Positions 5,847 through 58,860 of a stretch of DNA of 64,000 nt are shown piece by piece; the stretch's first letter is position 1, and each line of letters opens with the position of its first letter. Both the position numbers and the translations under genes were made by a program. The DNA comes from Candidatus Nomurabacteria bacterium (GTDB lineage Bacteria; Patescibacteriota; Saccharimonadia; Saccharimonadales; CAIOMD01): NCBI GenBank assembly GCA_020631975.1, contig JACKGO010000008.1, forward strand, positions 8,446-72,445, given 5' to 3'. The notes under the pieces are model-generated. The model had not been told where the DNA came from, ran no database searches, and was given only the letters and a program-made list of their open reading frames with translations.

Positions 5847-7000
5847 TCGTTACGTTTAAATAAATCTATCTCTACATCTGTCATACTCATGGTATCGGTA
5901 GGTCGTAAATGAGCTCGCATTGCAAGCGCATTTTTCATATTTACTTCTAACCTACCTGAGCGCCTATCATCAACATCCATAGCGATATTTCTCATAATTC
6001 TAGCCACAATATCAGCTTGGTGCAGGGTCATATTATGGCCCGCGCCAGGAATTATGACTGTCCCTGCAAAAGGTATAGGCTGTATATCTTGTGTAACAAT
6101 GTCTGTTGGGAACATTTTATCTTTTTCGCCCAATATCAAAGTTGTGGGTATGCCGTAGTCGGCCATAATATCCCATAATGATTTTTCTAAACGGCTCGTT
6201 GCCGCGTAGCCACCTTCGTAAATGGTAAGGGCTGGGTTTTCTGCTATAAAGAGTACCGTATTAACTGCCATTCGGGCGAGTTCACGTACGTTATGAAACA
6301 CCTCTGCTCTTTCGCCAACAACTGTGGCCGCAACTCGCGGAATTATCCCACCAACAGAATCGTTTATCATCACACCACCAGGACCTGCAAGCGAGAGCGA
6401 CTTAACGTGCTGTGGTGCTGCTTTTGTTGCCATCGTAACGTCAATTCCACCTAAGGAATGTCCAAGTAAATGCAAGTCAAAGTTTTCTTCACGCAGTCTA
6501 TCCGTTACTGCCAGTAAATTGTCGCGGCGAGATTTACCTGCAGACACAGCAGCACTAAACAGCGTTTTTCTATCATCTTCATCGGCAACTTGATCTGCGA
6601 GCATATCAATCAATACACCTTCGGCACGCTCTAGGTCTTTTTCTTCCCAAATGGCATTAGAAAGTTCTTGCCAGTTCGCCCGAAGATTGCGGCTAGCTAC
6701 AAGCAGTGACCATAAATCACGCAGGGCTCCACGGCGGGGATGATTAAAACATGCTGCATGTAAACCAACCCGGCCAATAGACCTGGCTTGTTTGTCTAAC
6801 CGGGTTTCGGTCCAGCCAGATTCGCACAAAACAAGCTCTCTTTCAAGCGGATTATTTGCAGGGGTTTCTGGGTGATACAAAAGAACCGAAATGTCTTGCT
6901 TGCGGAATGATGAGGTTTTTATGGTAATTTCTTCGTGGCGAATGGGGTATGAACTATGTGAGCTAGGTTGCTCCAGAAGCCACGGGTCTTCTCTGTTCAT
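5843..7000 (-). CDS. alpha/beta hydrolase
   Basis: 385-aa ORF with the nucleophile elbow GHSLGG, and a late GAGH motif compatible with the catalytic His. Confidence 0.65.
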   Translation of the reverse strand: MNREDPWLLEQPSSHSSYPIRHEEITIKTSSFRKQDISVLLYHPETPANNPLERELVLCESGWTETRLDKQARSIGRVGLHAACFNHPRRGALRDLWSLLVASRNLRANWQELSNAIWEEKDLERAEGVLIDMLADQVADEDDRKTLFSAAVSAGKSRRDNLLAVTDRLREENFDLHLLGHSLGGIDVTMATKAAPQHVKSLSLAGPGGVMINDSVGGIIPRVAATVVGERAEVFHNVRELARMAVNTVLFIAENPALTIYEGGYAATSRLEKSLWDIMADYGIPTTLILGEKDKMFPTDIVTQDIQPIPFAGTVIIPGAGHNMTLHQADIVARIMRNIAMDVDDRRSGRLEVNMKNALAMRAHLRPTDTMSMTDVEIDLFKRND

Positions 7001-15675: not shown

Positions 15676-15740
15676 CGTTATATTCCTTTCTTAACTTATG
15701 ATTTAGTTTTTTATTTTGTTACAGTTAATTATTAATATAT

Positions 15741-30364: not shown

Positions 30365-30370
30365 TAAATT

Positions 30371-30418
30371 CCTTTCGCCGTTTTCGGCTCGTCAGTGCGG
30401 ATACACATCCGCAGAGGG
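30371..30418 (-). ncRNA. type III hammerhead ribozyme motif, copy 1 (HHR-1)
   Basis: Minus strand: CCCUC/UGCGGAU-GUGU-AUCCGCA-CUGACGA-GCCG-AAAA-CGGC-GAAA-GG. The core is complete (CUGANGA, GAA, A15.1:U16.1, C17). Stems I and II are closed and stem III is open. The predicted cut is between 30414 and 30413. Confidence 0.6.
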
Positions 30419-30505
30419 TTGGGGTGGGCGCTTACGAGGGCGCCACACCCCTTTGTGATTGCCCAAAGTGGGCTTTGATGCGCTTATCACAAAAGCGCTG
30501 GCGGT

Positions 30506-31940: not shown

Positions 31941-31980
31941 TACTTATGATATCCTTTCAGGCTACTAGCCTAATATATTT

Positions 31981-32028
31981 CCTTTCGCCGTTTTCGGCTC
32001 ATCAGTGCAGACACACATCTGCAGAGGG
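31981..32028 (-). ncRNA. type III hammerhead ribozyme motif, copy 2 (HHR-2)
   Basis: Minus strand: CCCUC/UGCAGAU-GUGU-GUCUGCA-CUGAUGA-GCCG-AAAA-CGGC-GAAA-GG. The architecture is the same as HHR-1, with a compensatory G:C to A:U change in stem I. The predicted cut is between 32024 and 32023. Confidence 0.6.
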
Positions 32029-32515
32029 TTGGGGTGGGCTTATTGAGTTACGTCCTACCCCGCTCTATGCCTGCCCATGAGTTGGGCTTGAACGCGCATG
32101 CATAGAAAGCGCGTTTACTATATGACCCTAAGCGAGGGGGTTCCGTTTTATTTACAAGGAAACGGTTTCCTGAACCTCGCCGTCCTAGCACGGCTTCGGT
32201 GTACTCGTTGAGTACACGATCTCCTGCCGCTTAAACGGCAGCGGCTTACGCACAACGTCAGTTGGCTTCGCCAATGGACTCACCTCCTTCCGAGGTGTTG
32301 TCCGAATAAGCGCCAACTCGCTTCTTCGGAAGTATTTTAGCCGCCAGTTGGGGCGGAAGCAGTTTTAGTAACCCAGTGATGCCCATACTGGGGATTCGTC
32401 TAGAGCAGGTGCTCTTCGACGATCCGGACAATCTCGTCGGTGTCGACCACTGACGAGATGCCTGCGGCGATCCGCCGATAGTGGGGCTGCCGCCCCACCC
32501 TGGATCAACCTCGCC
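32029..32515 (-). ncRNA. G+C-rich chain of short perfect hairpins (candidate structured RNA; strand uncertain)
   Basis: No convincing ORF. At least 12 local hairpins of 4-8 bp were read directly, for example GUGGGGC/GCCCCAC, AUCUCGUC/GACGAGAU, CCCAGU/ACUGGG, CUGCCG/CGGCAG and GUGUACU/AGUACAC. The 3' ~90 nt are homologous to the three-hairpin module upstream of HHR-1. Confidence 0.35.
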
Positions 32516-32719
32516 GAGCGCCGTACCCAAAAACTTAAATAACTTACTGCTTGAAAGGACATCCACTATTCTTTGACACAAGTTGTCAATTGGAGCCGAA
32601 TGAGAGGCTTGCATCTTAGTAGACAGCCTCTTATCAAGCAACCAAGCCAAGTTTTTAACAAGCTTACTCTATAAATAAGCCCTGCCGTGAGCCAAATAGT
32701 CTTTAGCTCACGTATAGGA
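32516..32719. repeat. Repeat A, copy 2 (~204 bp)
   Basis: See copy 1. The palindrome TTGACA-N5-TGTCAA is at 32573..32589. The copy starts 13 nt after the stop of 32732..33436. Confidence 0.85.
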
Positions 32720-32731
32720 ATTATCTATCTT

Positions 32732-39302: not shown

Positions 39303-39374
39303 GGAAAATCCCGCGGGGCTTGTGGCCACACGCGGGACGATTTAGGTGGTTTGAATCGGCCCACCTAGAAAGCC
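39303..39374 (-). terminator. Repeat C copy 1: double-hairpin 3' module and terminator of the small-membrane-protein cassette
   Basis: The minus strand has UAGGUGG...CCACCUA, then UCCCGCG...CGCGGGA followed by UUUUCC. It is about 90% identical to 46236..46308. Confidence 0.6.
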
Positions 39375-39500
39375 GTTTGTGCGGTCTCGCCCGTGCCTTC
39401 TGGTTATGCCGTCTTTCCTGACAGCAGCTCCTTCTCGGTTGTGCCTTTTATTGACGGGCACACCTATGCTTACGGATCCCCGCTCTAGAGGTTTTTAAAC

Positions 39501-46235: not shown

Positions 46236-46308
46236 GAGAAAGTCCCGCGGGGTTTGTAGCCACACGCGGGACGATTTAGGTGGTTTGAATCGGCCCACCT
46301 AGAAAGCC
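46236..46308 (-). terminator. Repeat C copy 2: 3' module and terminator of cassette 2
   Basis: The same double hairpin as 39303..39374. It begins about 10 nt after the stop of 46320..46583. Confidence 0.6.
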
Positions 46309-46319
46309 TTTTTGCAACG

Positions 46320-49831: not shown

Positions 49832-49919
49832 TGGCGGAGGGAGAGGGATTCGAACCCTCGAGGGCTTGCGCCCAACACGCTTTCCAAGCGTGCGCCATAG
49901 GCCACTAGGCGACCCCTCC
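49832..49919 (-). tRNA. tRNA-Ser (anticodon GGA)
   Basis: Minus strand: GGAGGGG-UC-GCC...GGC-G-CACGC-UUGGAAA-GCGUG-long variable arm-GAGGG-UUCGAAU-CCCUC-UCCCUCC-G-CCA. It forms a full cloverleaf with an encoded CCA. Confidence 0.85.
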
Positions 49920-50047: not shown

Positions 50048-50112
50048 CCTCGAGGGCTTGCGCTGTAGCACGCTTTCCAAGCGTGCGCCATAGGCCACTA
50101 GGCGACCCCTCC
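50048..50112 (-). pseudogene. truncated second copy of tRNA-Ser(GGA), 5' two-thirds only
   Basis: Identical acceptor 5' strand, D arm and anticodon arm, with a variant variable arm. Similarity ends at GAGG. There is no T arm or 3' acceptor strand. Confidence 0.6.
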
Positions 50113-58329: not shown

Positions 58330-58860
58330 TTGAAGGTACTACCAGAAGTCAACGTCCAGCAGGGAGAGTTGTCGTTCAACGTTAGTGAGCTACAACTCAC
58401 CAGCGAAGAGCTCACGAGGCTGCTCAGTCGATTGCAAAAAATTGGTGGGTGGCGTGGCAACCCTACTCTGAAGAATGGAGTGATCCGAGTACAGCCGGCA
58501 AGCACGGTGATCGGACAAGTCGATCGGCTCCGGGAGAAGGTGGAGCGCGTCATCGCTCGATGCTCGCGTGAAGCAGAGCTGTACAAGCTTGACCCACGTA
58601 CGTACATCACGTGGGTCAAGGGCAACCGCTACACTGTTCGGTTGCTGACGGCGTTTGGTCTTGGCGAGGAAGACGTCCGTGAGCTAGCCGCAACGTTGCG
58701 CTCGAACCGCAAGGTGATGGACGTGAAGGTAGTGGACGCGAGGGTGGGACGCGATGGCGAGCTGACCATCACCACTCACGGGCACCAACGTGACGAGAAG
58801 CTGATGAGTGACCTGCAAGGGACAATCATCACTGTGGCTGCGTGCAGGCACGCAGTCTAG
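58330..58860 (+). CDS. hypothetical protein in a G+C-rich islet
   Basis: 176-aa ORF with a TTG start 9 nt after AAGGAGG. Its own promoter is TTGTGA-N19-TACAAT. Long hairpins follow the stop. Confidence 0.5.
   Translation: MKVLPEVNVQQGELSFNVSELQLTSEELTRLLSRLQKIGGWRGNPTLKNGVIRVQPASTVIGQVDRLREKVERVIARCSREAELYKLDPRTYITWVKGNRYTVRLLTAFGLGEEDVRELAATLRSNRKVMDVKVVDARVGRDGELTITTHGHQRDEKLMSDLQGTIITVAACRHAV

Follow-up and report, generated by a model that had tools for sequence, protein, structure and literature searches.

Hammerhead ribozymes in prokaryotic genomes often occur close together, flank small non-conserved open reading frames (ORFs), and have a link to phages and mobile elements (PMC6155905). 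Two candidate type III hammerheads, HHR-1 and HHR-2, lie in the stretch of Candidatus Nomurabacteria DNA analyzed here (64,000 nt, hereafter the window). Like the intergenic type III hammerheads described in that work, they form a pair, 1610 nt apart and in one orientation, with intact cores and covarying stems, and they sit just upstream of orphan ORFs (ORF307 and ORF291) and downstream of a small G+C-rich unit in a mobile, strain-variable setting. They differ from the described hammerheads in having a Patescibacteria host, Rfam scores below threshold, an extension of three hairpins (Ha, Hb, and Hc) before the cleavage site, and a stem III of 3 bp. We found no literature connecting hammerheads with Patescibacteria. 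Retrozymes of plants and animals and the transcripts of satellite DNA provide another point of reference, since there, as here, a type III ribozyme bounds G+C-rich, highly structured units (compare the tandem ~345-nt units of locus L021 described below). In contrast to retrozymes, the unit that ends at HHR-2 has no 5′ ribozyme, the units at these loci carry ordinary genes or gene debris, and no sign of circular RNA or reverse transcription was seen. The large RNAs GOLLD, ROOL, OLE, raiA, and HEARO/omega RNA also invite comparison with the segment that precedes HHR-2 (32029-32515), as they share with it a length of ~400-600 nt and high predicted structure, and some of them occur in mobile or phage contexts. 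Unlike these RNAs, the segment is a string of short independent hairpins with neither multi-stem junctions nor long-range helices, part of it is dead coding sequence, it has no conservation beyond one species, and it gives no match to their covariance models at E ≤ 10.

The original prediction for this segment was that a G+C-rich island in an A+T-richer genome signals a structured RNA. The reading that we favor, and hold to be reasonably probable, is that the segment forms the left end of a 3.3-kb island that varies among strains, and that it is pieced together from G+C-rich cassette DNA acquired horizontally. Read on the minus strand, this mosaic would run from a dead fragment of a DHH/DHHA1-family gene, through ~274 nt of decayed cargo or spacer with a relic ribosome-binding site and a 29-codon ORF, into the Ha-Hc hairpins of a hammerhead module. 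The features needed to follow the argument are given below in the order in which minus-strand transcription would meet them.

33436-32732, minus strand: ORF234, first in the local order
32515-32728, minus strand: Repeat A copy 2, the left direct repeat of the island, which abuts the gene remnant and is 90-94% identical to copy 1
32400-32521, minus strand: remnant of a gene of a predicted DHH/DHHA1 family, 122 nt with the last ~40 codons and a TAG stop (32402-32400)
32126-32399, minus strand: hairpin-dense spacer U280, 274 nt with nine perfect 5-8-bp hairpins and no detectable homologue
32280-32289, minus strand: perfect 10-nt Shine-Dalgarno (SD) sequence AAGGAGGUGA, sequestered in the predicted hairpin CACCUC-GGAAG-GAGGUG
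32185-32274, minus strand: 29-codon ORF with a UUG start, (M)AKPTDVVRKPLPFKRQEIVYSTSTPKPC*, beginning 5 nt after the SD sequence
32027-32125, minus strand: upstream part of hammerhead module 2, with predicted hairpins Ha (32115-32091), Hb (32087-32073), and Hc (32061-32031) followed by the 5′ strand of stem III
31979-32026, minus strand: HHR-2, candidate type III hammerhead with predicted cleavage after C32024
31940-31017, minus strand: ORF307, orphan, downstream of HHR-2
30883-30506, minus strand: ORF125, G+C-rich, preceding HHR-1
30365-30505, minus strand: hammerhead module 1 (Ha-Hb-Hc and HHR-1), paralogue of module 2, following ORF125
30364-29489, minus strand: ORF291, orphan, after HHR-1
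29405-29179, minus strand: Repeat A copy 1, the other island boundary, followed by a promoter and then ORF506

The segment is as unusual in composition and local structure as had been claimed. Its G+C content is 0.558 at 32001-32500, compared with 0.366 and 0.386 for the 500-nt bins on either side (flanks of ~37-39%), with 0.51-0.65 in 100-nt bins across 32029-32515, in a window with ~42% G+C overall. At least 12 consecutive perfect hairpins had been read from it. When hairpins are defined as non-overlapping perfect Watson-Crick stems of at least 5 bp with loops of 3-12 nt, the count is 15, compared with 3.45 ± 1.69 in 500 dinucleotide shuffles, none of which reached 15. Its central part, at 32126-32402, holds nine against 1.84 ± 1.15 in the shuffles (0/500). 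No other stretch of the 64 kb is as dense in hairpins, and the two densest of 456 overlapping 280-nt windows fall within the segment, with 10 and 9 hairpins against a mean of 2.43 (sd 1.47). Minimum free energy folding gives z-scores of −6.1 for the minus and −8.1 for the plus strand. Nearly all pairs in the stems are Watson-Crick, and G·U extensions are possible in five cases on the plus strand and two on the minus, so the strand is not readable from the hairpins. A plus-strand hairpin with a cUUCGg loop had been placed at 32311-32322, and its actual position is 32321-32332. Strain polymorphisms fall at four sites in the segment (one in a loop, one where a pair is kept only on the plus strand, and one where a pair is kept only on the minus strand), which gives no verdict on constraint.

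Known RNA families do not account for the segment. The covariance-model search proposed with the original prediction gave tRNA-Ser as the sole match in the whole window at the gathering score (Rfam 15), with none in the segment. At E ≤ 10, the region 32020-32530 returned FMN alone, at 11.2 bits against a gathering score of 66.2 and with an E of 7.1, which is chance level. A search of the segment for tRNA and tmRNA was negative, and inspection of its hairpins revealed neither a CsrB-like common loop motif nor a regular hairpin period. The 125-aa gene upstream of HHR-1 had been suggested as a possible relative, and blastn and tblastx comparisons with the window revealed no such paralogy, as the only matches of the segment were Repeat A and a 61-nt hammerhead block. 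Collections of phages and plasmids and viral contigs contained no match to the segment and gave no sign of a phage or plasmid origin.

The genomic setting is that of a mobile island in a cellular genome. The window encodes PolA, DnaG, ArgRS, and GroEL along with numerous orphan genes, most of them on the minus strand. Exact protein matches to it were found in the metagenome-assembled genome (MAG) GCA_020428475.1 (JAGQMV010000013.1) and also in a large number of contigs that belong to this species and come from bioreactor metagenomes. Two direct repeats of ~215 nt (Repeat A) delimit the 3.3-kb island in this genome of the Saccharibacteria/Patescibacteria type. In two strain contigs (L050 and L051), ORF234 is followed by one Repeat A of the copy-1 type and ORF506, and the island with the segment, both hammerheads, and three ORFs is missing. 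Another contig (L053) combines the island-less state with an rve-type IS element. We also observed in this contig, as a fourth structural variant, that the rve-type integrase/transposase gene (L053:1734-2705) comes after ORF234 and Repeat A, in the place that ORF506 occupies in island-less strains. In a sister strain (L043), both flanks are ~99% identical to the window, and the DNA corresponding to window positions 34306-32047 is swapped for other DNA with a join inside the HHR-2 module. The replacement begins with a 98-aa gene, followed in order by a G+C-rich unit that has both a strong SD sequence and an intact STIV_B116-like gene (Pfam PF08960, E 2.2e-26), a 250-nt spacer, and its own Ha-Hc. 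That spacer was compared with the window spacer as a possible homologue, and the two are not homologous. The segment is thus not present across strains, being missing in two and replaced in a third. The swap in L043 together with the absence in L050 and L051 indicates that the DNA before HHR-2 is an interchangeable G+C-rich cassette.

Folding of the genes in these cassettes bears directly on the structured-RNA argument. The sense strand of the B116-like coding sequence has a fold z-score of −8.8 to −9.7, and a value of −5.6 was obtained for ORF125 together with its flanks. Strong folding combined with high G+C is therefore a general property of the cassettes and not a mark of noncoding RNA (ncRNA). 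As a separate observation, the B116-like mRNA (L043:2853-3191) is predicted to form a near-continuous chain of long hairpins, with a z-score of about −9 in the sense orientation and −6.5 in the antisense, which is unusual for a coding sequence. ORF125 has weak repeat-domain similarity to a 3701-aa protein that resembles a tandem-repeat surface protein. The minus-strand fold of Repeat A, another side observation, comprises a 5′ hairpin and a long imperfect hairpin of ~50 bp with many G·U pairs. The z-scores of its two copies are −7.1 and −4.6 in the sense orientation compared to −3.2 and −2.7 in the antisense, and differences between the copies (C to U opposite G) preserve pairs, with a 13-nt indel at the apex. 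Repeat A could be a processing or terminator element, or it could be MITE-like.

Other elements were recorded elsewhere in the window. The motif ATTGACAAAAAAGCAAAAnTGTGCTAATAAT occurs on the minus strand in intergenic positions at 15707, 18677, 29083, 34804, 38612, and 43103 (repeat families D1 and D2), and it is a promoter of the sigma-70 type in which the spacer is unusually conserved. The 5′ part of tRNA-Ser(GGA) is duplicated exactly over 44 nt (49876-49919 and 50069-50112), with the copy 193 nt from the tRNA gene, start to start, which suggests an att-type duplication and past integration or excision beside the tRNA. A 75-nt G+C-rich element is found at 39304-39378 and 46238-46312, 6.9 kb apart with 95% identity, and contains the hairpins CCCGCG...CGCGGG and TAGGTGG...CCACCTA. 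The plus strand at 58330-58860 constitutes a third G+C-rich island (about 58-60% G+C) with a plausible 176-aa gene and 10 perfect hairpins against 4.0 ± 1.6. It is followed by a long hairpin and CCACCCUCUGUAG, which resembles a hammerhead cleavage context, and the ribozyme core is absent there.

The 5′ end of the segment derives from a protein-coding gene. The lead came from a tblastx match of the segment to an ORF upstream of a hammerhead in locus L003. This ORF belongs to a highly conserved family of at least 926 Patescibacteria “hypothetical proteins” of ~305 aa, whose invariant motifs include N.DPQH, R.DLD, and GWGGSP.I.GSPQG. The family sequence had no match in Pfam, NCBIfam, or the PDB, and its fold is predicted to be that of a DHH/DHHA1 phosphoesterase based on an AlphaFold model (pLDDT 93) for which Foldseek returned the PAP phosphatase 8a8k, TM1595, RecJ2, and NrN. 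The fold relatives of the parent family thus include NrnA-type pApA phosphodiesterase TM1595 as well as PAP phosphatase 8a8k and RecJ2. A family HMM built from 120 members was used for a maximum-sensitivity search of all six frames of the window, and the only matches were at the remnant, where positions 285-305 are found in one frame (E 1.7e-6) and 304-323 in the adjacent one. The N-terminal NIDPQH and RADLD metal-site motifs and a full-length frame were not found in the window by this six-frame search. With one lost G put back at CAG^GC (32462/32461), the remnant reads as the peptide ALGEVDPGWGGSPTIGGSPQGISSVVDTDEIVRIVEEHLL*, which has 60-69% identity to family C-termini (E about 1e-17) and stops at the family stop position. 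Alignment of the remnant to the family by hhalign gave a probability of 99.2% and an E of 1.6e-19. The remnant shares with intact members the C-terminal DHHA1-like glycine-rich motif GWGGSPTIGGSPQG (family motif GWGGSPTIxGSPQG) and the terminal helix, and it differs from them in its 1-nt frameshift and in its length, as the 5′ nine tenths of the gene are absent and ~13% is left. Given that only positions 285-323 are present and that these are split by the frameshift, this is a pseudogene fragment and not a gene. Its start coincides exactly with the Repeat A boundary. No indels were seen at the remnant among the strain contigs, so the sampled population seems to be fixed for the frameshift. The long C-terminal extensions that some family members carry gave no match, and the DHH-family motif was absent from viral contigs.

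A decayed gene had been offered alongside the structured-RNA reading as its alternative, with a match to a frameshifted protein gene named as the observation that would count against an RNA. Just such a match now accounts for the 5′ ~120 nt, or the first quarter, of the segment. It also changes the reading of a 130-aa ORF that had been dismissed as low-complexity read-through, a description that fails for residues 50-70, where a conserved protein motif is encoded. Of the four hairpins in the remnant, three lie on the codons for GWGGSPT, GGSP, and EEHLL, and a full or partial hairpin is found there in at least one of four intact homologues compared. Intact family genes are hairpin-enriched overall, with 10-18 hairpins against 6-7.5 expected. 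Since the same codons form hairpins in intact homologues and the intact genes are enriched, those hairpins of the remnant are by-products of coding.

The middle of the segment, U280, is the part that remains without relatives. A six-frame translation of 32021-32412 searched against 5.8 billion proteins returned nothing at E ≤ 10 among the best 8000 candidates, a weak negative. The DNA of U280 had no match in 25 hammerhead loci, six family loci, phages, plasmids, or viral contigs (hairpin-pattern scan), and no duplication of the remnant, direct or inverted, was found inside the spacer. A single metagenome scan with a pattern composed of the hammerhead and its upstream arm returned this species only. 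There is weak 3-periodicity of G in one minus-strand frame, which is broken by three in-frame stops. The density of hairpins in U280 is 3.2 per 100 nt compared to 1.1-2.0 in the intact cassette and family genes examined, or ~3-fold higher. The 10-nt SD sequence is one of two SD matches of at least 9 nt in the 64 kb, and the other (39776) precedes a real ATG. Because the sole other match fronts a real gene, the U280 sequence is most simply viewed as the relic start of a cargo gene, and the 29-codon ORF behind it could be that relic start or a micro-ORF.

The 3′ end of the segment is where the case for RNA structure is best. Rfam Hammerhead_3 scores the two copies in the window at 32.1 and 31.2 bits, with HHR-2 at 31.2 bits (E 5e-4), and both fall below the RF00008 gathering score of 48.5 bits. 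Both do satisfy the features that define type III, namely a core of CUGAnGA...GAAA, an H17 other than G, and a three-helix fold in which stem III is open. Across 27 copies from 25 loci, mostly in Patescibacteria, covariation is seen in stem I (6-7 bp) and in stem III (3-8 bp), and the H17 position holds C, U, or A but never G. It is on this core and covariation, and not on the score, that the predicted membership of HHR-1 and HHR-2 in type III rests. The upstream sequences of HHR-2 and HHR-1 align with each other over ~105 nt, the three hairpins Ha, Hb, and Hc are predicted in both, and a third version is available from sister strain L043. Compensatory changes across the three versions include a U-A to A-U change in Ha and a GC/GC to UUUU/AAAA change in distal Hc. 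Changes from G-C to G·U in Ha-Hc keep pairing on the hammerhead (minus) strand only. Judged from this comparative evidence, Ha-Hc (32125-32027) is a real minus-strand RNA structure, the predicted role of which is that of accessory hairpins to the hammerhead, not an independent RNA gene. The structured-RNA reading therefore survives for 32125-32027 as part of a ribozyme module and fails for the ~120-nt 5′ part, the frameshifted gene fragment. Its premise, which equates a G+C-rich island in a genome rich in A+T with structured RNA, does not stand when a Pfam-matching B116-like gene folds at a z-score of about −9. The argument from folding fails because of that coding sequence, because intact homologues of the remnant are hairpin-enriched, and because the segment is absent in some strains.

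The wider hammerhead family provided several observations of its own. Outside the window, the variant described here is found chiefly in MAGs of Patescibacteria and Saccharibacteria. Loci L001-L025, mostly from Patescibacteria MAGs, contain type III hammerheads with the identical core CUGAYGAGCCGAAAACGGCGAAA and covarying stems, all below the Rfam gathering threshold. Many of these follow a stop codon and a hairpin and closely precede a ribosome-binding site and start codon, between unrelated genes. The 200 nt upstream of 25 hammerhead copies have a mean z-score of −2.6 in the sense orientation and −1.6 in the antisense, compared to −1.6 downstream. In locus L021 (5800-6900), a promoter-like TTGACA...TAGTAT is followed by three noncoding, G+C-richer units of ~300-345 nt and then the first gene. 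Two identical type III hammerheads (cores starting at 6160 and 6505) separate the units, of which 2 and 3 are diverged repeats. In this bacterial MAG contig, the hammerheads are thus arrayed in tandem in the manner of a satellite.

Returning to the mosaic-cassette reading, we infer the following fate for the RNA. Minus-strand transcription would pass from upstream via Repeat A and the segment, which would together form the leader of ORF307. HHR-2 would then cut after C32024 to free the ORF307 mRNA with a 5′-OH, leaving an upstream cleavage product that would end in Ha-Hc and a 2′,3′-cyclic phosphate. In intact cassettes, Ha-Hc may shield the upstream cistron from 3′ exonucleases, so that this cistron would be decoupled and probably stabilized. 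Because the upstream cargo of the segment is dead, its leader RNA would probably be a discarded by-product. The hairpin density comes partly from remnant codon palindromes and partly from the ribozyme module, and the rest, which these two leave unexplained, could be a legacy of the unusually structured cassette DNA. Some observations sit uneasily with this account. A neutral relic does not obviously predict the ~3-fold hairpin density of U280, mismatch-free stems are unexpected in a decaying sequence, and the protein search described above, weak as a negative, revealed no homologue among its best 8000 candidates that shows U280 was ever coding.

Perfect, strand-symmetric Watson-Crick stems that fold equally well on both strands would be expected if the hairpins were DNA-level palindromes with no RNA role, produced by template-switch (quasi-palindrome) mutation or acting at the island boundary as sites of recombination or secondary structure. 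This idea agrees with the position of the segment, which lies at the margin of an island that is prone to recombination and exists in several structural variants. We still regard it as unlikely, as the hairpins lack a repeated unit or common motif, no recombinase gene is nearby in this variant, a single sequence is all that bears on the mechanism, and Ha-Hc retain G·U pairs specific to one RNA strand. A functional stand-alone structured ncRNA, made of the whole segment or its 3′ ~370 nt with a 3′ end generated by hammerhead self-cleavage (for example, a decoy or scaffold built from cassette debris), would make good use of HHR-2, which would define that end precisely. The extreme hairpin density and fold z-scores that speak for such an RNA are countered by genuine cassette genes that fold equally well or better. 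The sense bias upstream of the 25 hammerhead copies and the noncoding ~300-nt units between the L021 hammerheads lend it further support, but in the segment itself the stems are short, independent, purely Watson-Crick, and without strand asymmetry, unlike those of Repeat A or the B116-like coding sequence. With sister strains that have no segment or a replacement, no homologue found beyond one species in the collections searched, no match in Rfam, and one quarter of the segment assigned to a dead coding fragment, we find a stand-alone ncRNA improbable.

It is also possible to take the start site in U280 at face value, with a 29-aa micro-protein translated under the control of the SD-sequestering hairpin CACCUC/GAGGUG and the rest of U280 serving as 5′ and 3′ untranslated regions. 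The anti-SD-like arm does pair perfectly with a 10-nt SD sequence of a quality otherwise reserved in the 64 kb for a real gene, and the 5-nt distance to the start has been noted. That start is a UUG, no homologue was found, one of the two polymorphisms in U280 alters the last codon (C to R), the region is missing in other strains, and 29 aa is too short for validation by sequence alone, all of which make the proposal rather improbable to us. Opposite the ORF307 leader, an antisense RNA from the plus strand would profit from the slightly better fold of that strand (z −8.1 against −6.1), its C(UUCG)G loop, and a weak terminator-like site at 32124-32152. The flanking genes, both hammerheads, the remnant, the SD sequence, and the wobble pairs of Ha-Hc are all on the minus strand, however, and no convincing plus-strand promoter was found, so we give a plus-strand function hardly any credence. 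A more ambitious proposal is that the hammerhead-terminated G+C-rich cassettes (the segment, the ORF125 unit, the B116-like unit of L043, and the units of L021) belong to an undescribed mobile system of this and related Patescibacteria genomes, with RNA selected for dense structure in coding and noncoding units alike, in which the ribozyme module would act as both processing site and recombination joint and the RNA from 32029-32515 would be retained after release by the ribozyme. We offer this as a speculative and rather doubtful extension.

For scans of genomes, the preferred mosaic-cassette reading amounts to a caution. An island marked by high G+C, an extreme fold z-score, and consecutive perfect hairpins proved to consist mostly of debris from a gene and of ribozyme flanks, and a genuine protein gene in the same system folds even better than the segment. 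The by-products of the analysis extend past this one locus. A large, unannotated Patescibacteria protein family has received a predicted DHH/DHHA1 fold assignment, and a covarying family of candidate type III hammerheads with a conserved three-hairpin extension has emerged across Patescibacteria genomes, along with evidence that G+C-rich cassettes, which vary among strains, have their joints at the ribozyme modules.
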